Source of the DNA: Leptonemataceae bacterium
Lineage (GTDB): Bacteria; Spirochaetota; Leptospiria; Leptospirales; Leptonemataceae
DNA length: 64,000 nucleotides
Assembly: GCA_965227295.1 (NCBI GenBank)
Contig: OZ245742.1
Span: forward strand, 4,128,001 to 4,192,000
Reading direction: 5' to 3'
Shown here: piece by piece, positions 26,791 through 38,980 of the stretch
Layout: every line of letters starts with the position of its first letter
Position numbering within the stretch: the first letter of the stretch is position 1
Made by a program: the position numbers and the translations under genes
Notes under the pieces: generated by a model
The model's input: the letters and a program-made list of their open reading frames with translations, nothing else
What the model was told of the DNA's origin: nothing
Databases searched by the model: none

Positions 26791-27393
26791 ATGGCCGAAT
26801 TCGTTACCATCCTCAAGAAACACAGCGCCAAATTCATTCTTCTTGCGACGACCGTTGTTCTCATCTACTGGGTCTGGATCGTTCCGCCGAAGTACCAGGG
26901 CTACCAGCCCGACCAACCCGTTCCCTTCTCTCACAAAATTCACGCCGGTGAAATGAACATGGACTGCCGGTTCTGTCACGCGTCGGTCGAGAAGGGACCG
27001 CATGCTTCGGTGCCGGATACCGCAACCTGCATGAAGTGTCACCAACAGGTCGCATCGGACAGCCCGTACATTCAGTACGTCCGCCAGTCCTACGAACAGG
27101 GAGTGCCCATCCGCTGGATCAAAGCGCACGACCTTCCCGACCACGCACGGTTCAGTCACAAACCGCACATCGCTTTTCTGGGCGGGCAGCCCGGAGTGGA
27201 GAACACTGCCGAGACCTGTGCCCACTGCCACGGTGATATGCGCGAAGTCGAAGGCAAGGTCGCCGTCGCCTCCGAGTTCAACATGGGCTGGTGCGTGAAC
27301 TGCCACCGCAGTTACGAAAACCAGGTCCAGGATACACCGGCCGGTTTCAACCAGGCCTCCAATCTAACCACGTGCGGCACATGCCATTATTAA
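26791..27393 (+). CDS. actA: alternative complex III pentaheme cytochrome c subunit
   Basis: One TM, GYQPDQPVPFSHKIHAG, five CxxCH motifs (CRFCH, CMKCH, CAHCH, CVNCH, CGTCH), MGWCV. Confidence 0.93.
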   Translation: MAEFVTILKKHSAKFILLATTVVLIYWVWIVPPKYQGYQPDQPVPFSHKIHAGEMNMDCRFCHASVEKGPHASVPDTATCMKCHQQVASDSPYIQYVRQSYEQGVPIRWIKAHDLPDHARFSHKPHIAFLGGQPGVENTAETCAHCHGDMREVEGKVAVASEFNMGWCVNCHRSYENQVQDTPAGFNQASNLTTCGTCHY

Positions 27394-27485: not shown

Positions 27486-30400
27486 ATGAAGCATTCGCAG
27501 AAATCAGCCCAAACCGCCGGAACGTTTAAGAAATACTGGCAATCCCTCGAAGAGAAACAGGACCTGGCGCTTACCGACTGGGAGCGCCCGGAATTTCCGG
27601 AACGCCCGGAAACGTCCGCGAAGTCCGGCTTCTCGCGCCGGGACTTCCTGAAGTTCATGGGGGCCGGTGCCGTCATGGCCACCGCGGCCTGCCGCCGTCC
27701 CACCGAGCAGATCGTTCCCGCGGTCAAAGCACCGCCGGAACAGGTCCCCGGTTTGCCCACGTTCTACTCCAGCACCACCCCGGGCGGTTCCGGCATTGTC
27801 GTGCGCACCCGCGACGGACGCCCGGTAAAAATCGCCGGCAACCCCGACCATCCGCTGACCCACGGAGGTGTGACCGCCTCGGAAGTTGCATCGATCATGG
27901 ACCTCTACGATCCGGATCGTCTACGCAAGCCGGTCGTCTTCGAAGAGAAGAACGGCAAGCGCCGCAAGCAGGTCAGCACGGACAGCGCCATCGTCTCCGC
28001 GGCCACCGCCAAACTTGCGAGCGGCGAAAGTTACCTGCTCTTCACCGGTCCGGTGGACAGCCCGTCGACGCGCTCCCTCGTCGCCGATTTTCTGCGCAAG
28101 TATCCCGGCGGTCGTCACGTAGAGTTTCGTCCGGATCCGGCGCTCCGCCAGATCGCCGAAGGCCAGCGGGAATCTTACGGCCAGGACCTCGTCCCGAACT
28201 ATCGCTTCGATCGTGCCGACCTGGTCGTCTCCATTGACGGCGACTTCCTGGGCACGCTCATTCACCCGGCCTACTTTTCACACGCCTTCACTTCGAAGCG
28301 CGACCTGCGCAAGAGCAAGAAGTCCATCAACCGACTGGTGGCTTTCGAGTCCATGTTCACGCTCACCGGTTCCAACGCCGACGAACGCTACGGCATCCGT
28401 CCCGGGGACCAAACGCTCATCGCCCTCGCCATCGCATCGTACTTAATCGTTGAACAACGTCGCAGCAATCTGGCCGGCAACGCCGCCGTGCGTTCGCTGC
28501 TGCAACAGTATCGCCCGGAAACCATTGCCAACGCGCTCAAGCAAGAGAGCGGCCTGTACCGCAAGGGTCACTTCGAAGAGGTGATTGCCCGCGTCGCCGA
28601 CGAACTGTGGAACCATCGCGGTCGCAGCCTGGTCATCGGCGGTTCGCCCCTGGCCGCGACCGGCAACAACGCCGCCGCTCAAATTGCGGTGAACCTGTTA
28701 AACTCGATCCTCGGCAACGACGGAGTGACCGTGGCCTACGGGCAGCCGCTCCAGTACAGCACCGGCATCTCCGATCGCGAACTCCAGGCGGTCATCGGCG
28801 ACATCGGCAAACGCTACAAAACGATCATCCTCGCGGCCAACCCGGTCTATCATTTGCCCCAGAATCTGAATGCCCATGCGGCGCTGGCCAAGGCCGACTA
28901 CGTGCTGGCCCTGAGCGATCGCCTGGACGAAAGCGCACAACTGGCCGACGCCGTGTTGCCGCTCAGTCACTGGCTGGAAGCCTGGGGCGACAGCGAAGTC
29001 ATCGCCGGAGTACACGGCATTCGTCAGCCGGTCATCCGTCCGCTCTACAATACACTTTCACTCGAAGATCGCTTGATCCAGCTCGCCGGCGGAAACCTCG
29101 GCGGGCAGTCCACGTTCCACGACTACGTGAAGAACCGCTGGCGCGGGCTTGCGGGTGGGAAGAACTTCCGTAAGTTCTGGGTCTCCGTCCTCCAGGCCGG
29201 CTACTACGCCCCCGGCCGGTCCGCCCTGAAAGGCTCGCGTCCGGCCCGTACGTTTCGTCCGGGCGCCCTCGGCCGACTGCCGCAATTCTCGAGTGCGTCC
29301 GGTCCGGAAACGGACAGCGGCAAACTCGTCCTCGGCCTCTACTATAACGTGCAGGTTCTCGACGGCAGCGGCGCGAACAACGCCTACCGCCAGGAACTGC
29401 CCGATCCCGTGACGAAGATCGTCTGGGACAACTACGTGGCCATGTTGCCCGCCACGGCGCGCAGTCTCGGCCTGCAGCAGGGTTCGATGGTGGAACTCAC
29501 CACGAAGTCCGGCGCTAAGATGAAGCTGCCCGTGCACCTGCAGCCCGGCCTGCATCCTCAGGCGGCCCTGGTGGCCCTGGGCTACGGTCGCGAGGCGGCC
29601 GGCAAAATCGGCGACGGCGTGGGCAAGAAGGCCCTGGACATGGTCGTCATCGGCTCTGACTCACTGGCCTTCTCCGGCGACGTCGTCGAGGTCAAAGCCG
29701 CCGGTGGTCGTCATACCCTGGCCAGCACGCAAACGATCTACCGCCAGGGCTTCAACGATCAGAGCAAACGCAATCTTCCCGGCACGCCCGAGGGCGCGCA
29801 CGAGGTTCCCTTCGCCGGCTCATCTCTCTACACGGGGATGCGCGACGGCAAACACCAGCAACGCCCCATCGTCCGCGAAACGACCTGGAGCGAGTACAAA
29901 ACCGGCAAGTTCGAACTGCAACCGCCGGCCCTTTACTACCCGAAGGGCGCGGAACTCATGCCGGAGTGGAACTACAAAGATACGCGCTGGCACATGGTCA
30001 TCGACCTGAACGCCTGCACCGGTTGCGGCGCCTGCGTTACGTCGTGTAACAACGAGAACAACATCCCCATGGTCGGCCGTGATCAGGTGGCCCGGGGTCG
30101 CGAGATGCACTGGCTGCGCATCGATCGTTACTTCGTCACGACGGCGGAAGAGAGTCTGGACCAGGACGAAATCGAAGAAGCGCCGGTTATCGCGCACCAG
30201 CCGATGCTCTGTCAGCACTGTGAAAACGCACCGTGCGAAAACGTTTGTCCGGTGGCGGCCACGACGCACAACCACGAAGGTCTGAACGTCATGACCTACA
30301 ACCGCTGCGTCGGCACGCGCTATTGCGCGAACAACTGCCCTTACAAAGTACGTCGCTTTAACTGGTACGAAAACTGGAACTACATGGAAGGCCTGTGGCG

Positions 30401-30743
30401 CGGCATTCGCGACCCGCAGCATCTGGCCATGAACCCCGACGTCACCGTGCGCACGCGTGGTGTCATCGAGAAGTGCATGTTCTGTATTCAACGCATCGCG
30501 GTGGCTCGCCAGGAAAGCAAAGCCCGCGGCGAAAGCTACGTTCCGGACGGCTCCGTGGTTACGGCCTGCCAGGAAGTCTGCCCCACCGGCGGCATCAGTT
30601 TCGGAAACATCCTCGATCCGGACAGCGACGTGCAGAAGCTCAAGAAGAAAGAAGAGCAGCGCTCCTTCCAGGTCCTCGACTTCCTCGGGGTTAAACCCTC
30701 GATCACTTACCTGGCACGGGTTCGAAACAAGGGGCAGAGCTGA
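27486..30743 (+). CDS. actB: alternative complex III Tat-exported molybdopterin-like/Fe-S subunit
   Basis: KKYWQSLEE, Tat SRRDFLK plus lipobox TAAC, QELPDPVTKIVWDN, CTGCGAC, CQHCENAPC..VCP, CVGTRYCANNCPY, KCMFC..ACQEVCP. Confidence 0.95.
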   Translation: MKHSQKSAQTAGTFKKYWQSLEEKQDLALTDWERPEFPERPETSAKSGFSRRDFLKFMGAGAVMATAACRRPTEQIVPAVKAPPEQVPGLPTFYSSTTPGGSGIVVRTRDGRPVKIAGNPDHPLTHGGVTASEVASIMDLYDPDRLRKPVVFEEKNGKRRKQVSTDSAIVSAATAKLASGESYLLFTGPVDSPSTRSLVADFLRKYPGGRHVEFRPDPALRQIAEGQRESYGQDLVPNYRFDRADLVVSIDGDFLGTLIHPAYFSHAFTSKRDLRKSKKSINRLVAFESMFTLTGSNADERYGIRPGDQTLIALAIASYLIVEQRRSNLAGNAAVRSLLQQYRPETIANALKQESGLYRKGHFEEVIARVADELWNHRGRSLVIGGSPLAATGNNAAAQIAVNLLNSILGNDGVTVAYGQPLQYSTGISDRELQAVIGDIGKRYKTIILAANPVYHLPQNLNAHAALAKADYVLALSDRLDESAQLADAVLPLSHWLEAWGDSEVIAGVHGIRQPVIRPLYNTLSLEDRLIQLAGGNLGGQSTFHDYVKNRWRGLAGGKNFRKFWVSVLQAGYYAPGRSALKGSRPARTFRPGALGRLPQFSSASGPETDSGKLVLGLYYNVQVLDGSGANNAYRQELPDPVTKIVWDNYVAMLPATARSLGLQQGSMVELTTKSGAKMKLPVHLQPGLHPQAALVALGYGREAAGKIGDGVGKKALDMVVIGSDSLAFSGDVVEVKAAGGRHTLASTQTIYRQGFNDQSKRNLPGTPEGAHEVPFAGSSLYTGMRDGKHQQRPIVRETTWSEYKTGKFELQPPALYYPKGAELMPEWNYKDTRWHMVIDLNACTGCGACVTSCNNENNIPMVGRDQVARGREMHWLRIDRYFVTTAEESLDQDEIEEAPVIAHQPMLCQHCENAPCENVCPVAATTHNHEGLNVMTYNRCVGTRYCANNCPYKVRRFNWYENWNYMEGLWRGIRDPQHLAMNPDVTVRTRGVIEKCMFCIQRIAVARQESKARGESYVPDGSVVTACQEVCPTGGISFGNILDPDSDVQKLKKKEEQRSFQVLDFLGVKPSITYLARVRNKGQS

Positions 30744-30775: not shown

Positions 30776-32191
30776 ATGGCACAGGACAAAGACTCGGCAT
30801 ACGAAGAAGAGTGGCGGAAGATCAAACCGCCGCTCGTAACCGGCGATAAGGTCTACAAAGACGTCAACGATGACGTCGTCGCCCCCATTGACGCGTTCCC
30901 CACGAAGTTGTGGTGGATCGCGTTCGGCATTTCGGTAGGCCTCCTCGGGCTCCTGGGCATCGAGATCGGCTGGCTGATCGCCAACGGCATGGGCGTCGTC
31001 GGTGTGAACGTTCCCATCTCCTGGGGCTCGTTCATCATCACGTTCGTTTTCTGGATCGGCATCGGTCACGCGGGAACGTTGATTTCCGCGGTCCTGTATA
31101 TCTTCCGGCAACAGTGGCGCACGGCCATCAACCGTTCCGCGGAAGCCATGACCATCTTCGCGGTCGCCTGCGCGGGTATCTTCCCGATCATCCACGTCGG
31201 TCGTCCCTGGCTGGTACTCATCTGGTTCCCGCCGCTGCCCAACGAACGCGGCACGCTGTGGCCGAACTTCCGTTCGCCGCTGCTCTGGGACCTTTTTGCA
31301 ATCTCTACTTACTTAACAATTTCGCTGGTCTTCTGGTACCTCGGCCTCGTGCCGGACCTCGCGTCCATCCGCGACCGTATCAAGGGCAGTGACTTCTGGC
31401 AGAAAATCCGCAAAAACTTCTACTCCGCCCTGTCTCTGGGCTGGGTGGGCAGCGCGCGCTCCTGGGCGCACTACGAATCCACGGCGATGATCCTCGCCGG
31501 CCTTTCGACGCCGCTCGTCCTTTCGGTGCACTCCATCGTATCCTTCGACTTTGCGACGTCGGTCATCCCGGGCTGGCACACGACTATCTTCCCGCCCTAC
31601 TTCGTCGCGGGCGCCATCTTCTCCGGCTTCGGCATGGTACTCACGCTGCTCATTCTCATGCGTGAGCTCTTTCAACTGAAAGACTACATTACCATGAAAC
31701 ACCTGGAGAACATGGCGAAAGTCTGCACACTCACGGGCATGCTCGTCGGCCTCGCCTACGGCACCGAGTTCTTCGTGGCCTGGTATTCGGGCTCCGAGCC
31801 GGAAGCCTTCGCATTCATCAACCGCGCCTTCGGTCCGTACTGGTGGGCCTACTGGATCATGATCTCGTGCAACGTGATCAGCCCGCAGATCTTCTGGTTC
31901 AAACAACTGCGCACGAACATCTACGTGCTGTGGGTGGTTTCGATCTTTATCAACATCGGTATGTGGTTCGAGCGCTTCGTGATCGTTGTCACGTCGCTGC
32001 ACCGCGACTTCCTGCCGTCCAGCTGGGACATGTATGTCATGACCATTCACGACTACGGCATCATGCTGGGCTCGTTTGGTTTGTTCTTTACGCTGTTCCT
32101 GCTGTTCTGCCGCTTTCTGCCGACCATTGCCATGGCGGAAATCAAGACGGTCATGAAATCCAAGGACGCGGCCAAGGGTTACGGACACTGA
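30776..32191 (+). CDS. actC: alternative complex III NrfD-like quinol-binding subunit
   Basis: [53 protein letters not shown]. Confidence 0.95.
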
Positions 32192-32226: not shown

Positions 32227-33000
32227 ATGAAAGAAAAACTGGATGCATTTCTGGCCGGCCTGGCCTCGAAAATCGATGCGGCCCTCACCGCACCGGGCCT
32301 GGCGTTTTTCAATTTCGTCGAGTCCTTCTTCCAGTATACCTACCGGGAGACGGAAAAGGGCATTTACTGTCTGTTCGATACGCCGGAAAAGATGAGCAAG
32401 GCCGCGAAGGCCACGCACGCCAGAGGCTACACGAACTTCGACTGCCTCACCCCGTTCCCGGTGCACGGCCTGGAGTTCGACATGGGCCTCACGCGCTCGA
32501 AGATTCCGTACATCACGTTCTTCGCCGGCCTTACCGGCCTCGCGATTGCGTTCGGTTTGCAAACCATCGTGCACGAAAACATCATCGAACGGCCGGAGTT
32601 CCTGGCCTTCCTCGACGGCTACCCGAACATCTGGTCCTACCCGCTGAACATCGGCGGCAAACCGACGTTCGCCTGGCCGGCCATGGTACCGATTCTCTTC
32701 GAACTTACGGTCCTCATCGGCGGACACACGACGGTGGCCGGACTCATCCTGCTCGCGAAGATGTACAAACCCTTCCGCGGCGTCCTGCACCCGGACATCA
32801 CGAACGACAAATTCGCGCTCTGGATTCCGGCGGACTCCGCCCACTACGACGAGGCCGGCGTGGCCGCGTTCATGAAGGAACTCGGCGCGGACAACATTAC
32901 GAAGGTGGACGGCGAAAATCAAAGCGCGGTCTCCGCACCGGCCGTGAGCGGCGACGCTCCGGTTGCGGGTGATAGCGCCCCGGAAACCGGCAACGGCTAA
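32227..33000 (+). CDS. actD: alternative complex III subunit ActD (DUF3341)
   Basis: TPFPVHGL, YPLNIGGKP, PILFELTVL, TNDKF. Confidence 0.92.
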   Translation: MKEKLDAFLAGLASKIDAALTAPGLAFFNFVESFFQYTYRETEKGIYCLFDTPEKMSKAAKATHARGYTNFDCLTPFPVHGLEFDMGLTRSKIPYITFFAGLTGLAIAFGLQTIVHENIIERPEFLAFLDGYPNIWSYPLNIGGKPTFAWPAMVPILFELTVLIGGHTTVAGLILLAKMYKPFRGVLHPDITNDKFALWIPADSAHYDEAGVAAFMKELGADNITKVDGENQSAVSAPAVSGDAPVAGDSAPETGNG

Positions 33001-33032: not shown

Positions 33033-33662
33033 ATGAAGTTATCTAAACGATACAGCAACGTCCTTCGCACCGCGGGCATCGCGGCTGCCGTGCTCTTTCT
33101 CGCGAACTGCAACTACGGCGGGAGTCTTTCCGGAATCCACTGGTTCCTGGATATGCACGACGGCTACTCCGTGGAAAGCCAGGAAGAAGACTACACGAAC
33201 CTGGACGTCAGCAAGAACGGCGCCTGGACGCGCGGCATGGACAACAGCGAAATCTGGGGCGGCCCCGGTACGGTGGTTCGCATGCCGCCGGAAGGCACAA
33301 TCCCCCGTAACAAAGAACCGTATCCCTACGAGGCCACGGACTTCGCCGCCGCCGGGGCCGAACTGCGCAACCCGCTGCCGGCAACGAAGGCCATCCTCGC
33401 CCGGGGCCAGGACCAGTACAACGCCTACTGCGCGGTGTGCCACGGTTACACCGGAAACGGCGACGGCCCGGTCACCCCACGCTTTCCGGACGTACCGAGC
33501 CTGAATTCCGAAAAGATCAAGGCCTGGAAAGACGGTGAGATCTTTCACATCATTACGATGGGCCGCGCCCGGATGTATCCGTACGCGGCGCAGGTGGAAC
33601 CGAATGATCGTTGGGCGATCATCCGATACGTACGCCTGCTTCAGGCGAACAGCGAACAGTAA
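33033..33662 (+). CDS. actE: alternative complex III monoheme cytochrome c lipoprotein
   Basis: Lipobox LANC, DMH, PPEGTIPR, CAVCH, DGEIFHIITMG..RM, DRWAI. Confidence 0.92.
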   Translation: MKLSKRYSNVLRTAGIAAAVLFLANCNYGGSLSGIHWFLDMHDGYSVESQEEDYTNLDVSKNGAWTRGMDNSEIWGGPGTVVRMPPEGTIPRNKEPYPYEATDFAAAGAELRNPLPATKAILARGQDQYNAYCAVCHGYTGNGDGPVTPRFPDVPSLNSEKIKAWKDGEIFHIITMGRARMYPYAAQVEPNDRWAIIRYVRLLQANSEQ

Positions 33663-33685
33663 ACACAGTAACATTTGGTGAAATC

Positions 33686-35062
33686 ATGGTAAGCCTTCCG
33701 GAAGAATCGAAACTCCAGTTCAAGATTCCGAAACAACTGCAAACGATCTGCCTCGCGCTGGTTGCGGTTGGTCTCGTACTCACGGTGATCCAGGCGGTGA
33801 TTGCGCTGCCCGGCGGTGACGCCCACCACGGCGGCGACCATCATGCCGAAGCGGCGGACCACGGCGACGCGGCGCATGCCGAAGACCACGCTGCTGACGA
33901 AAACGGTGATGCAGCGCATGGGGAAGATCACGCCGTGGCGGAAGAGCACGGCGAAGAGGATCACGGCGAACACCACGGCTACACGGCAAAGATGCGCTTC
34001 TTTTACTCGCTGCATCTGGCACTGTTGATCCTGATCCCGCTCAGCCTGTCGGGCGTCTACTTCTCGGCCTACAACCATCTCTCCGGTGCGGCCTGGAGCG
34101 TGACCGTCCGCCGCGTGGCGGAGAACTTCTTCTGGGGCCTGCCGGTGGCCTTCGTGTTGTTGTTGGTCATCCTCTTCCTGGGCATCGGCGACGTATTCCA
34201 TCACTGGGTCGGCAAGGCGGAATCCGACCACCTGATCGCCCACAAAGAACCGTATCTCAACGTCGGTTTCTTTACCGTTCGTAACATCATCATCTTCCTG
34301 GTATGGATGGTCTTCGGTTATCTGTTCTGGCGCTGGTCCACGAAACAGGACGAGGACGGTAAACTCGGCCGGACCAAAATGCTCGCGCGCCTGGGCGGCG
34401 GTTTCCTCGTCGTCTTCGGTCTCACATACTCGGTTTCGACCTGGGACCTGGCCATGAGCCTGTACCCGCACTGGTTCTCCACGCTGTGGGCGCTTTACAT
34501 TTTCGCGGGCCTGGCGCTCACGCTCTTCGCGACGCTCATTCTCTGGACTTACTTTCTTAAGAAAGCCGGCTACTACGGCGACACCTTCAACGAGAACCAC
34601 TTCCACGATCTCGGGAAGTTCATGTTCGGCCACACGATCTTCTGGGCCTACATGGCGGTCTCTCAGTACCTGCTCATCTGGTACGGACACATTCCCGAGG
34701 TCACGACCTACTATAAATACCGCACCACCGGCGGCTGGTACTACGTAACCTTCTTCCTGGTGATTGCGCGCTTTGCGATTCCGTTCTTCGCTCTGGTGCG
34801 TCGCGACGTGAAACGCAACTGGAACTACATGGCGGTCCTGTCCGCCTGGATCCTCTTCGGCCAGGTCCTGGATATGTACTGGATCGTCTACCCGACGCTG
34901 GACGGTCACGGAGCCTTCATCATGTTCAGCTGGCAGGAACTCGGCCCGCTGCTCATGGTAGCCGGCGCCTTCATCTACCTGGTGGCGTGGGGCCTGTCAC
35001 GGAACTCGTTGATTCCGAAAAAAGACCCGCGCCTGGAGGAATGTCTGCACTTTCACCAGTGA
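33686..35062 (+). CDS. actF: alternative complex III subunit ActF with His-rich loop
   Basis: AAWS...RRVAE, K.PYLN, WDLAMSLYPHWFST, HFHDLGK, SQYLLIWY..IPE, PKKDPRLEE. ATG 33686. Confidence 0.92.
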   Translation: MVSLPEESKLQFKIPKQLQTICLALVAVGLVLTVIQAVIALPGGDAHHGGDHHAEAADHGDAAHAEDHAADENGDAAHGEDHAVAEEHGEEDHGEHHGYTAKMRFFYSLHLALLILIPLSLSGVYFSAYNHLSGAAWSVTVRRVAENFFWGLPVAFVLLLVILFLGIGDVFHHWVGKAESDHLIAHKEPYLNVGFFTVRNIIIFLVWMVFGYLFWRWSTKQDEDGKLGRTKMLARLGGGFLVVFGLTYSVSTWDLAMSLYPHWFSTLWALYIFAGLALTLFATLILWTYFLKKAGYYGDTFNENHFHDLGKFMFGHTIFWAYMAVSQYLLIWYGHIPEVTTYYKYRTTGGWYYVTFFLVIARFAIPFFALVRRDVKRNWNYMAVLSAWILFGQVLDMYWIVYPTLDGHGAFIMFSWQELGPLLMVAGAFIYLVAWGLSRNSLIPKKDPRLEECLHFHQ

Positions 35063-35109
35063 GACGGCGCGCCGAATTGTATTCATCGAAACTCAAGCAG
35101 AGAAGCAGC

Positions 35110-36066
35110 ATGCAGAACATAAAACGAAATAGTCTGATGTTCCTGGTAACGGCCCTGGCCGCGACCGCCACGGTAGCCTGCGGCGGACCGGACGGCAGCA
35201 TCGAAGGCCATCATTCGCCGAACCCGCTGAAGGTGCCGGTCTACGAAAGCAACGCCACGGTCGTATACAAAGGCTCCATCTATTACGCCGAAGCCGGCTG
35301 TGCGAAGTGCCACGGCGTCGGCTTTGACGGCGCCGGTCCGGACGCGAGCGGCGTGCAGAGCGAAACCGGCCTCAGCGTGCCGGGTTTCCAGAGCGTTGAG
35401 ATCGCCCCGGAAAAAACGCCCCTGGCCTACTTCAAAGCCATTACCGTGGGCACCGAAAAGCTGCCGACACACTCGTACCAATCTTACACGGACCGTGGTC
35501 GCTGGGCCATGGCCCACTTTCTGTATTCACTGACCACGAAACCTTCGGGACCGAAAGCCGCGGCTCACGGAGCCCAACTGGCGAAAGACGAGCAGGCCGT
35601 GCATGCGGCCTACGCTTCGGACCGTCGTTGGGTCATGGGCTACAAACCCATCGGAGAACGTGACAAAGCACCGGAGCTGGGTTCGCTCATGAAACTCACG
35701 AGCGTCGAAGAAGAGTACGCCACGGTCAGTGTGGACGAAGCCCGCAAAGACCGTCGCGATGTCACGCATGCGGGCTACGAACTCTACGAAAACAACTGCG
35801 TCATGTGCCACGGCAAGTACGGCGAGGGCATGGCGTCGAGCAAACGCTTCGGCCTGTACCGCTGTGATGAGCGCGATCGGCAGTGCGGCGTGTTCCTTTC
35901 CACCCGGGACTTCGCCGACAGCACGGCCCTGCAGAGCGCGGGCGCCTTCTCCGAAGCTCACGCCGCGGCCAGTGACGCGGGGCAAAACCTGCGCTCATTT
36001 TCGCACTTCAGCACCGAAGAGTGGCAGGACCTTTACGACTATACACGCAAGCTGGCGGGCCGGTAA
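35110..36066 (+). CDS. diheme cytochrome c lipoprotein
   Basis: Lipobox TVAC; CAKCH and CVMCH. ATG 35110. Confidence 0.85.
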   Translation: MQNIKRNSLMFLVTALAATATVACGGPDGSIEGHHSPNPLKVPVYESNATVVYKGSIYYAEAGCAKCHGVGFDGAGPDASGVQSETGLSVPGFQSVEIAPEKTPLAYFKAITVGTEKLPTHSYQSYTDRGRWAMAHFLYSLTTKPSGPKAAAHGAQLAKDEQAVHAAYASDRRWVMGYKPIGERDKAPELGSLMKLTSVEEEYATVSVDEARKDRRDVTHAGYELYENNCVMCHGKYGEGMASSKRFGLYRCDERDRQCGVFLSTRDFADSTALQSAGAFSEAHAAASDAGQNLRSFSHFSTEEWQDLYDYTRKLAGR

Positions 36067-36103: not shown

Positions 36104-37645
36104 ATGGAACTGATCAAAAATCTCATTAAACTCGTCGAAGACATTCACTTCACCGTGAAGGCCTATCTGCTCGCCGGCTTCCTCTGGTCCCTGGCGGCAC
36201 TCGCCCTGGGCCTCTTGAACCAGGTGCAGTTCTTCGTGATCCTGGGCATTCCGCCGGAGCTGGACTACGGTTACGTGCGCCCGCTCTACACGACGGCCCT
36301 CATTTACGGCGCCCTGCTCTCGTTCTTCTTCGGAGCGTCGTACTACATTCTCAAGAATGTGACGGGCTCCAATCCGCCCCTGGCCCTGGCCGCCTGGGCG
36401 GGATTCAAGCTGCACCAGATCGCGGTGCTCTTCGGCATCATTACGATCCTGGTCGGTTACAACAGCGGCCGGGAGTACGGCGAACTCAACTGGATCGCCG
36501 ACAACCTGCTGATCATCGCACTGGTTCTGTTTCTCGTAACGACGATCCAGGCGGTGATCGCCTCGGGTAAGAAAGATGCAACCGCCCTCGTGCCGATTTC
36601 TCTGGCCGTCGTCGCCGGCGCGGGCGGACTCATCTCGTATTTCTTCGCGAACTTCGGCCTGCCGAACAGCCCGCTGACCTCCGTGGGCATTTACCGCGGC
36701 ATGATGGATGCCACGCTCCAGGAAATGTTCCGGTACGGCGTCCTGGGATACTTCATCCTGTTTCCGTGCTTCGCGATGTTGAGTTACTTCGTTCCGTCCT
36801 ACTATAAAGTCCCGCTGTACAGCACCAGCGCCGTGCGCTTTCACACTTTCGCCATGATCATCCTGCTGCCCCTGGCCGGGGCTTCAGGCCTGGCATTTTC
36901 GGCGGCGCCCGGCCTCCAGGAAACCGTCGGCGTCTTTACGGCCCTCGCTCTGGGCTTCGCGATTCTCGCCGGCGCCTTCAACGTGCGCAACACACTGACC
37001 CGTTCCGGAAAGTACTTCCGTTCGGATGCGGTGGGCCTCACGTTGCGTTGGGGTCTCTTCTTCTTGATTGCTGTCGCCGTTCTGCGTATTTTTGCGACGC
37101 CGTTCTTCATGCAGGCCGCCGTAGGCTATACCGCATACAACGTAAAAGATCTCAGCCTGGACGTGGTGACCTACGCCCTGCCCATCGCCATCGGTGTGGC
37201 TTTCATCATCACCCAGAAGATCAGCAACCGCCGCCTGTCACCTTCCGCGGCCGGATGGTTCGTCTTCCTGTTCGTTCTTGGAGCAGCATTGCTCTGGATC
37301 GGCTCCGTCGCGGGCGGTCTGCTCCAGGGCGCAAGCCAGAGCGCTCTCGTGGACGGCGGCGTGCCCGGCGTAAAGGTTCCGGAAGTCACCGACTGGACCG
37401 CAGTCCTGGTTCCGGGCAGCCTCTATCAGGGCGAAGACTTCCTCGGGAAGTTCTTAATCAGCCTGCGCGGCCTGGCGTTCTTCGGCTACTTGCTGATCGT
37501 ACTCGCCGTGCTGATTGCGAGCCTGGCCTTCTTGCTGCATCATGTAGTCTCCGGACCGGAGTACAGCGAACCCGATCTGGAAGATAAGGAACGCGCGGCA
37601 GAAGAGGCCGCCGTTGCCGGAGCGTCCGGGCACGGCGCTCATTGA
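36104..37645 (+). CDS. CcoN-like (cbb3 subunit I fold) membrane protein lacking heme/Cu ligands
   Basis: Colinear with CcoN (YG.VRPL.T, REYGELNW, G..DA..Q, YFVP...PLYS, FRSD), but the His-ligand positions are substituted. Confidence 0.85.
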   Translation: MELIKNLIKLVEDIHFTVKAYLLAGFLWSLAALALGLLNQVQFFVILGIPPELDYGYVRPLYTTALIYGALLSFFFGASYYILKNVTGSNPPLALAAWAGFKLHQIAVLFGIITILVGYNSGREYGELNWIADNLLIIALVLFLVTTIQAVIASGKKDATALVPISLAVVAGAGGLISYFFANFGLPNSPLTSVGIYRGMMDATLQEMFRYGVLGYFILFPCFAMLSYFVPSYYKVPLYSTSAVRFHTFAMIILLPLAGASGLAFSAAPGLQETVGVFTALALGFAILAGAFNVRNTLTRSGKYFRSDAVGLTLRWGLFFLIAVAVLRIFATPFFMQAAVGYTAYNVKDLSLDVVTYALPIAIGVAFIITQKISNRRLSPSAAGWFVFLFVLGAALLWIGSVAGGLLQGASQSALVDGGVPGVKVPEVTDWTAVLVPGSLYQGEDFLGKFLISLRGLAFFGYLLIVLAVLIASLAFLLHHVVSGPEYSEPDLEDKERAAEEAAVAGASGHGAH

Positions 37646-37681: not shown

Positions 37682-38374
37682 ATGAGCGAAAAACAAAATC
37701 CCATCGCAAGTTTCCTCGACGATCTCATGAGCGATCCGCTCAAGCTCGCCGGCGCAACGATCGTGCTCAGCCTGGGCATCGGTTTCGCGGCGCTGCACTT
37801 TCCGTACGAAAGCATGCCCGCCTACGGCAGTCGCCATCTCACCATGGAGAAGGCGATTGTCGTGAAAGGCCAGGAAGTCTACTATCAGGAAGGCTGCCAG
37901 TACTGTCACAGCCAGAACCTGCGTTCGCTGAACTGGGAGGTCGCCCGCTTCGCTCAATCCGGCGCGGAACAACCCTACGGTTACTTTCCGCTGCCGGAAA
38001 TGATGGAGTACAATTTCGAAATGCCCTCGCTGCGCGGCAGCAGCCGGCTCGGCCCGGATCTCTCTCGCGTTGCCGGCCGATTCGACGAGGCTCAGCTCAC
38101 TTCGCTTCTGAAAAGCACGAAGACGGACAGTCTGCGCAGCGGCCACCATCGCTACGGCCACCTCTTCCAGAGTGACGCCGGCATCAATCCGCTCTTCCTG
38201 TCCTGGCGCATTCGCATGATGATGGAATGGCGCGCGCCGCTTTCCGATGATTTTCAAAAGAGCGCGTTCGAACAGTTGAACGACAAAAGTCGCGGCGACG
38301 CCCTGGTGGCCTATCTCCTCAGCCTCGGGAAAAAACAATCCGACTTCGCCGGAAAATTCTACAATAACCAGTAA
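37682..38374 (+). CDS. CcoO-like monoheme cytochrome c
   Basis: One TM, GQEVYYQEGCQYCHSQNLR, GSSRLGPDLSRV, DALVAYLLSLG. Confidence 0.88.
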   Translation: MSEKQNPIASFLDDLMSDPLKLAGATIVLSLGIGFAALHFPYESMPAYGSRHLTMEKAIVVKGQEVYYQEGCQYCHSQNLRSLNWEVARFAQSGAEQPYGYFPLPEMMEYNFEMPSLRGSSRLGPDLSRVAGRFDEAQLTSLLKSTKTDSLRSGHHRYGHLFQSDAGINPLFLSWRIRMMMEWRAPLSDDFQKSAFEQLNDKSRGDALVAYLLSLGKKQSDFAGKFYNNQ

Positions 38375-38391: not shown

Positions 38392-38856
38392 ATGAGCAAT
38401 CCATCCCCCGCAGGTGTACCTAACTGGATTCTGTTTCTGTTCGTCGGATCGCTGATCGTCGGCGGCGCTTACGGTATCTTTAATCATGTGTTTCTCGGCC
38501 CCACGCCGATCAACGCTTACGTGATTCCCACCGTGGCGGAGGTTCCGCCGCGCACGCCCGAAAACATTCAGCTCGGTGAAGAGATTTACGGACGCGCCTG
38601 CGTCGCCTGCCACGGCCAGAACCTCGAAGGCCTGGTGGGCCCGTCGCTTGCGGACGCCGAATGGTGGCACCACCAGAACGAAACGGATATGGGCAAACTC
38701 ATCATGCGCGGCATCGGAGCCGGCCAGTCCGTCTCCGGTCAGATCATGCCCGCGAAGGGCGGCGCGGCGATCAGCGACGCCGACGTCTGGCGCGTGGTGT
38801 ACTTCCTGTCCGAAAAGAACGGAACGATCGAGAAAGATCAGAACGCCGGCGAGTAA
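38392..38856 (+). CDS. short CcoP-like monoheme cytochrome c
   Basis: P.W..LF TM segment, CVACHG, GPSL.D..W, IMPA. Confidence 0.85.
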   Translation: MSNPSPAGVPNWILFLFVGSLIVGGAYGIFNHVFLGPTPINAYVIPTVAEVPPRTPENIQLGEEIYGRACVACHGQNLEGLVGPSLADAEWWHHQNETDMGKLIMRGIGAGQSVSGQIMPAKGGAAISDADVWRVVYFLSEKNGTIEKDQNAGE

Positions 38857-38904: not shown

Positions 38905-38980
38905 GAAGTTCGCGGAGAGTGGGCGTGGTGGGTGCGCTGCTTCTGCGGTCGCGTTGGGTAAGTTTGATCCAGCTTAAGTT

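Follow-up and report, generated by a model that had tools for sequence, protein, structure and literature searches.

A cbb3 oxidase subunit I homologue without heme or copper ligands is conserved in the alternative complex III operon of a Leptospirales family

Introduction

What keeps the catalytic subunit of a terminal oxidase in a genome once every residue that would hold its metal centre is gone? The question is raised by a stretch of 64,000 nucleotides from a Leptonemataceae bacterium of the order Leptospirales, phylum Spirochaetota (assembly GCA_965227295.1, contig OZ245742.1, forward-strand positions 4,128,001 to 4,192,000), hereafter called the window. An open reading frame (ORF) at positions 36104 to 37645 of its plus strand encodes a 513-residue relative of CcoN, subunit I of the cbb3-type heme-copper oxidases, which we call pseudo-CcoN. 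The original prediction, made by eye from the window's letters, described a full-length CcoN homologue in which all six His ligands and the cross-linked Tyr are replaced, and it proposed a retained non-catalytic function rather than decay. Here we follow up that proposal with profile searches, structure modelling, orthologue comparison, selection analysis and phylogeny, and we find that the gene is part of an operon for alternative complex III (ACIII).

In the literature, cbb3 genes linked to ACIII are treated as functional oxidases, as far as the available part of that source extends (PMC6688271). A survey of heme-copper oxidases recognizes twelve families, none of which is described as cofactor-less in the portion of the text available (PMC11214002). 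The figure legend of another article names an "unknown group" of heme-copper oxidases, credited to Muntyan et al. 2015 (PMC5492636). Full-text literature searches, and the available parts of these three sources and of 10.64898/2026.01.22.701106, gave no description of a ligand-less CcoN.

Results

Pseudo-CcoN has the CcoN fold and lacks all seven catalytic residues

The pseudo-CcoN frame is open over its entire length. It matches the Pfam family COX1 (PF00115) with 90.2 bits (cut-off 34.8, E 1.8e-25), and a phmmer search against the Protein Data Bank (PDB) aligns residues 17-419 to the cbb3 CcoN chains 9g6b_A (E 6e-20) and 3mk7_A (E 4.7e-19), with about 20% identity to the latter, chain A of the Pseudomonas stutzeri structure 3MK7, over that span. 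The curated ccoN equivalog TIGR00780 gives 88.1 bits, far below its cut-off of 583.15, and pseudo-CcoN shares only 27% identity with the genuine CcoN encoded in its own genome. By these alignments pseudo-CcoN is nearest to the cbb3 type among heme-copper oxidase subunits I and descends from CcoN, the catalytic subunit of the C-family (cbb3) enzymes.

In the P. stutzeri structure, the CcoN motif residues that serve as ligands of heme b, heme b3 and CuB, together with the cross-linked Tyr, are H60, H207, Y251, H257, H258, H345 and H347. We read the corresponding columns from the printed HMMER alignments and from a MAFFT alignment that includes L002, the genuine CcoN encoded elsewhere in this genome. 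RPLHT has become RPLYT (Y62), WYGHN has become FRYG (Y211), YIWAGPHHL has become LPLAGASGL (L255, S261 and G262) and TIGHVH has become VKDLS (D349 and S351). The columns of the axial His pair of low-spin heme b hold Y62 and S351, both variable among 22 orthologues; that of the axial His of high-spin heme b3 holds D349; and the three CuB His and the cross-linked Tyr are represented by Y211, S261, G262 and L255. The motifs REYGELNW, YFVP..PLYS and FRSD, which the original prediction had listed as persisting, are all retained, and both alignment methods recover each of the substitutions that it had named. Pseudo-CcoN is predicted to bind neither heme b, heme b3 nor CuB and hence to be unable to reduce O2.

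The protein has nevertheless kept its architecture. An AlphaFold2 model built from 24 family sequences has twelve long helices (predicted local distance difference test, pLDDT, 88.1; predicted template modelling score, pTM, 0.90). The best PDB matches of this model in Foldseek are all CcoN chains, with template modelling (TM) scores of 0.75-0.82, and the comparison with 3mk7_A gives TM 0.81/0.89 at 20% identity. The HMMER and MAFFT alignments place no His at any ligand site and the model confirms the CcoN fold, so the description given in the original prediction was right in every detail. That prediction had also expected that automated pipelines would mistake the protein for an oxidase; indeed, homologues are recorded by NCBI and JGI as "cbb3-type cytochrome c oxidase subunit I", and the ESM Atlas returned just generic COX1 clusters for pseudo-CcoN.

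The ligand-less gene is under purifying selection

We searched 40 related genomes and obtained strong matches throughout one Leptospirales family (f1). Twenty loci were fetched, followed by three more from the most divergent genera, and 22 of these 23 contain an orthologue; the remaining one (L035) is a genuine cbb3 locus with all seven residues and no ACIII genes. None of the seven catalytic residues is present in the window copy or in any of the 22 orthologues, which answers the question, raised at the outset, of whether relatives share the substitutions. A match of the pseudo-CcoN type occurs in all 24 genomes of the family covered here, namely the 22 fetched and two with partial contigs.

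The frames are intact, at pairwise identities from 22% to 88% in the 24-row alignment. In-match stops were flagged in two genomes (G002 and G021), where the match extends beyond the end of an intact ORF, so these genes are not broken. In two close genome pairs, the ratio of nonsynonymous to synonymous substitution rates (dN/dS, Nei-Gojobori) of pseudo-CcoN is 0.077 and 0.031, within the range of its ACIII neighbours; nine other operon genes give 0.023 to 0.149 in the same pairs. The GC content at third codon positions (GC3) is 0.788, compared with 0.72-0.83 in neighbouring genes, which bears out the host-like codons reported initially. Thus, the pseudo-CcoN gene is under purifying selection and is not decaying, and the retained, non-catalytic function that had been proposed draws support from the shared losses, the intact frames and the low dN/dS.

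Conservation is concentrated on one face, and the heme pockets carry charges

Which parts of CcoN has this selection preserved? In an alignment of 21 full-ligand CcoNs, 51 columns reach a conservation of 90% or more, and we compared these with 39 members of the pseudo-CcoN family. In at least 80% of these members, 14 of the columns are kept (W28, G56, P60, G118, E124, E127, G199, Y209, P231, S240, P269, N293, T343 and G393), and the other 37 are not. E124 and E127 are the Glu pair of the REYGE loop, which joins helices 3 and 4 and is better conserved than any other segment of pseudo-CcoN (mean major-residue frequency 0.73). With the topology taken from CcoN by homology, the same measure averages 0.52 in periplasmic and 0.36 in cytoplasmic loops. 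In cbb3 oxidase, CcoO sits on the periplasmic face. The conserved face of pseudo-CcoN is, on this homology-based topology, the face that carries CcoO in cbb3.

The vacated interior has changed in a different manner. Five of the seven catalytic positions vary freely among orthologues, the first of them holding Y, F, M, G, A, S, L or V, so no alternative ligand is conserved at those five. At the heme b3 His position, all 20 copies of the first set carry D, N or E (D in 17, N in 2 and E in 1). This change and Arg328, which replaces a Gly that is invariant in CcoN, are peculiar to the pseudo-CcoN family. Glu207 and Arg210 adjoin the former CuB His and are usually lost jointly across the family. 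The side chains of Arg328, Asp349, Glu207 and Arg210 may fill and neutralise the empty heme pockets.

The cytoplasmic C-terminal tail (window positions 37550-37645) contains a Y-x-E-P-D-L-like motif in many orthologues, and 13 of the 24 aligned copies end in His.

Pseudo-CcoN belongs to a four-gene add-on to the ACIII operon

Pseudo-CcoN is the eighth of ten co-oriented genes, with intergenic gaps of at most 92 bp, in the order ActA, ActB, ActC, ActD, ActE, ActF, lipoprotein cytochrome c, pseudo-CcoN, psO and psP. Pfam matches and gene order identify ActA to ActF together as an ACIII operon, ActF by orthology and position only. All lie on the plus strand. ActA (26791..27393) is a pentaheme cytochrome c with five CXXCH motifs, matches to Cytochrome_C7 and class III cytochrome c, and the same position in relatives. 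ActB (27486..30743) is the molybdopterin-like and 4Fe-4S subunit, with matches to Fer4 families, Molybdopterin, Molydop_binding and TAT_signal, the last marking its twin-arginine (TAT) signal. ActC (30776..32191) is an NrfD-like membrane quinol subunit (NrfD, 86 bits), and ActD (32227..33000; PF11821, 166 bits) is the genome's only match to its family. ActE (33033..33662) is a monoheme cytochrome c with one CXXCH and matches to Cytochrome_CBB3 and Cytochrom_C. ActF (33611..35062), the second NrfD-like membrane subunit, has no Pfam family of its own and is assigned by its position and by orthologues that weakly match ActC; its listed TTG start overlaps ActE, and a later ATG near 33686 is more likely.

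The remaining genes surround pseudo-CcoN. Upstream lies the lipoprotein cytochrome c ("diC"; 34987..36066, with its likely start at the ATG at 35110), which has two heme-c domains, two CXXCH motifs and matches to Cytochrom_C and Cytochrome_CBB3. Downstream lie psO (37682..38374), a monoheme cytochrome c that is similar to CcoO/FixO and anchored in the membrane by its N terminus, and psP (38392..38856; Cytochrome_CBB3, 48.5 bits), a membrane-anchored monoheme cytochrome c that resembles one CcoP heme domain. A weakly supported terminator-like hairpin (38953-38973) follows psP. A scan of the window for promoters gave 4 sites against 4.2 expected, and no Rfam match was found in the window.

The arrangement is fixed across the family. 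Each of the 22 fetched relatives has the lipoprotein cytochrome c, pseudo-CcoN and psO side by side, with ActD, ActE and ActF directly upstream of them; psP follows in 20 of the 22, and the remaining two loci stop at a contig end. Gaps of 17-37 bp together with this fixed order link pseudo-CcoN, psO and psP to the ACIII genes, as evidence of the co-transcription type. ActA to ActC are present wherever the contig reaches, with one exception (L026, G017:C1:902000-918500): this locus has ActD to psP, but none of the three turned up in the 8.9 kb that precede ActD. At another locus, in a draft genome (L032, G018:C13, 9095-12285), ActB is split into two overlapping ORFs by a frameshift or a sequencing error.

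Every one of the 41 Leptospirales genomes searched has ActD. In the sister family f2, sampled by three genomes of three genera (L054-L056), ActABCDEF is followed by a small non-heme ORF and by none of the four genes discussed here. That ORF is about 150-183 residues long and lacks CXXCH. Since the three f2 operons lack them, the four genes form a unit that was either gained by or lost from ACIII. By gene content and order, the block of lipoprotein cytochrome c, pseudo-CcoN, psO and psP is an add-on to the ACIII operon.

The partner cytochromes keep their heme-c motifs, and psO has lost its Met ligand

psO scores 61.2 bits against the FixO domain (PF02433, cut-off 29.6), has a hydrophobic stretch at residues 20-40 that forms its N-terminal anchor, and is 35% identical to the genome's genuine CcoO. 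Its CXXCH (C72, C75 and H76) is invariant in 20 of 20 copies. The Met expected as the sixth heme ligand is absent from every one of these copies: H155 of psO occupies the column of the ligand Met in 8smr_F and in the genuine CcoO of this genome, a column filled by F, Y, L, I, S, N or G in other copies. One residue further on lies the invariant His156, and psO has no conserved Met at any position. Because the Met position is never Met and the adjacent His156 is invariant, the psO heme is probably His/His-ligated, which would lower its potential.

Across its 19 aligned copies, psP always has CXXCH and a Met, usually as Met-Pro. Each of the 20 aligned lipoprotein cytochromes c has a Cys where the signal peptide ends and, after it, the first heme domain; the second domain is missing in 5 of them. 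Inspection by eye shows that the first domain of most copies retains a His within an H-x-Y context, whereas it has no invariant Met. The first-domain heme of this lipoprotein may be His/His-ligated too.

O2 reduction is covered elsewhere in the genome

The genome, a single contig of 5.94 Mb, encodes a genuine cbb3 oxidase with all ligands and with CcoO (L002) and an A-type oxidase (L001), both outside the operon, so O2 reduction is covered elsewhere. A PF00033 cytochrome b was not found in this genome, the completeness of which is 93.6%. With one ActD and no such cytochrome b, ACIII is apparently its only complex-III-type enzyme. The ACIII operon context, the genuine cbb3 elsewhere and the altered heme ligand of the CcoO-like psO had not been noted in the original prediction.

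Ligand loss among CcoN-like proteins extends beyond Leptospirales

A profile of the family, run against 401 genomes of the phylum in a draw that did not resample f1, gave just matches of 179-219 bits outside the window's genome. The same profile gives 651 bits for pseudo-CcoN and 202 bits for the genuine CcoN of that genome, so those matches are at the level of genuine CcoN. A pattern scan of one genome per species found at least 15 loci, a lower bound because a single pattern was used, under the titles Leptospirales, Leptospiraceae, Leptonemataceae, other spirochaete metagenome-assembled genomes or "bacterium".

An exhaustive HMMER search of 1.84 billion representatives placed about 36 proteins above 350 bits. 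Below that score lie many CcoN-like proteins in which the ligand set is incomplete or wholly missing, among them fusion proteins 650-1000 residues long. Of the 133 rows with at least 400 domain residues, 66 have none of the seven catalytic residues, 46 have part of the set and 21 have it complete, proportions that are biased towards ligand-less proteins because the search profile is itself ligand-less, and distant rows of this search may be misaligned. One ligand-poor group carries mostly Verrucomicrobia names, plus single Methylomirabilota and Baltobacteraceae names, and several of its members retain one or more His.

We inferred a tree of 65 rows with IQ-TREE (LG+C20) after removal of the ligand columns. 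The Leptospirales pseudo-CcoN family forms one clade (SH-aLRT 99, stem 1.41). The Verrucomicrobia-type group falls within another clade (98) together with 13 full-ligand CcoNs, two of which are nested inside the group. Overall, the ligand-poor representatives fall in at least three separate clades. The exhaustive search suggests that CcoN-like proteins have lost ligands widely and repeatedly. Joining the two ligand-poor groups costs 38.7 log-likelihood units and is not rejected by the approximately unbiased (AU) test (p 0.082). Independent loss in the Leptospirales and Verrucomicrobia-type groups is thus favoured and not proven, because the groups lie in separate clades, yet their joint clade has a p-AU of 0.082.

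Discussion

Why, then, is a CcoN that is predicted to be unable to reduce O2 maintained beside the genes of ACIII? The explanation that we consider somewhat probable is that pseudo-CcoN has no catalytic role and acts as a scaffold in the membrane by which c-type hemes are held on ACIII. Pseudo-CcoN would be retained as a platform of twelve membrane helices; psO, with its heme c and its own membrane anchor, would sit on the periplasmic face of this platform, as CcoO does in cbb3 oxidase; and the monoheme psP and the lipoprotein cytochrome c would lie beside the two. The add-on would thus most likely hold extra c-type hemes next to ACIII, and these could pass electrons from ACIII to the aa3-type and genuine cbb3 oxidases or tether ACIII to them. 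In favour of this reading are the replacement of every ligand, the retained fold, the low dN/dS, the fixed gene order, the conservation of the face that carries CcoO in cbb3, the heme-c motifs of the partners, the oxidases encoded elsewhere and the side chains that may fill the former heme pocket. We infer the binding of psO and psP to pseudo-CcoN, the association with ACIII, the direction of electron flow and its acceptor, and likewise the His/His ligation of psO.

Several observations weigh against the scaffold. The psO heme is left without its natural acceptor, heme b, and no next acceptor has been identified. The structure model of psO alone is of low confidence (pLDDT 64.2, pTM 0.53). The three fetched ACIII operons of the sister family lack the whole add-on; ACIII is therefore not dependent on it, nor is a scaffold a necessity. 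Moreover, a scaffold role alone would leave the conserved, buried E207, R210, R328 and D349 unexplained.

These four charges are the starting point of an alternative that we regard as unlikely, in which the heme-less shell is an ion- or proton-conducting module coupled to ACIII turnover, with buried charges in place of the metal centre. They lie in the membrane at or next to the former CuB and heme b3 ligand sites and are kept in most members, E207 and R210 are usually lost jointly, and ACIII itself is thought to translocate protons, according to the available part of PMC6688271. However, the charges may merely pair to fill vacant heme pockets, most of the polar and aromatic positions that are invariant in CcoN and lie off the periplasmic face have been lost, and the subunit retains no redox centre to drive transport. 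The acidic residue at the heme b3 position in all first-set copies, and the commonness of Glu207, could instead point to a cofactor bound through non-His residues, since carboxylates can bind metals, and hence to a redox or catalytic role of pseudo-CcoN's own. This we consider improbable: small or hydrophobic residues predominate at the remaining six ligand positions, which vary without constraint, a cation would be repelled by Arg210 and Arg328, and the Arg, Trp and Tyr near the hemes that are invariant in full-ligand CcoNs are also gone.

The working centre might also be sought outside pseudo-CcoN. If the latter were just a base, the heme c of psO, five-coordinate or with a labile His, could bind small molecules, for instance peroxide, NO or O2; the loss of the CcoO Met in every copy, His156 as the only invariant candidate ligand besides the CXXCH His and the loss of the normal electron acceptor would all accord with this. 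Against it, an invariant His by the Met position is most simply a sixth ligand, which makes an electron-transfer heme with His/His ligation, and no catalytic residues have been identified, so we hold this possibility to be a slight one. Least credible of all is that the gene is a decaying relic or a functionless annotation artefact. Everything needed for the ancestral activity has indeed been lost, as decay would have it, but decay is contradicted by frames intact in all 22 fetched relatives at identities down to 22%, by dN/dS values of 0.03-0.08 and by the fixed operon position, to which the host-like GC3 and the confident structure model may be added; we have rejected it.

The scaffold finds partial parallels in known respiratory complexes. 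Like CcoN of the cbb3 oxidase (3MK7 chain A), pseudo-CcoN has the 12-helix fold and the conserved periplasmic Glu loop, and, as in a cbb3 operon, a CcoO-like gene follows directly and then a CcoP-like cytochrome c; unlike CcoN, it lacks the six His and the Tyr, has lost 37 of 51 invariant columns and is located inside an ACIII operon. A supercomplex of ACIII with an aa3 oxidase was reportedly described by Sun et al. in 2018 for Flavobacterium johnsoniae. In both systems oxidase-type genes come after ActABCDEF, and the idea of direct electron hand-over to an attached module is common to them, whereas here the attached "oxidase" has no metal centre and the functional oxidases have their genes at other loci. 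The peptidase-derived core proteins of the mitochondrial bc1 complex are catalytically dead subunits kept in a respiratory complex. There, likewise, an enzyme fold is kept as a structural subunit after loss of activity; the proteins are unrelated, and the likeness is an analogy only.

More tentatively, cofactor-less CcoN shells might constitute a recurrent class of ACIII accessories, with at least two independent origins, in Leptospirales and Verrucomicrobiota, from ACIII-linked cbb3 oxidases. Such a shell would owe its retention to a new function, either as a supercomplex adaptor that docks ACIII to the genuine oxidases or as an ion-coupling site built from the buried Glu/Arg/Arg/Asp, in concert with a heme c retuned from His/Met to His/His ligation.

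Finally, these proteins matter for how respiration is read from sequence data. CcoN genes are used in genome and metagenome surveys as markers of high-affinity, microaerobic respiration, and because members of this family are labelled cbb3 subunit I yet are predicted not to be oxidases, survey counts of CcoN would be inflated. For bioenergetics, a heme-copper oxidase subunit I that is strongly selected without a metal centre is unusual. It points to an unstudied accessory module on ACIII, a complex whose electron exit route and coupling remain debated.

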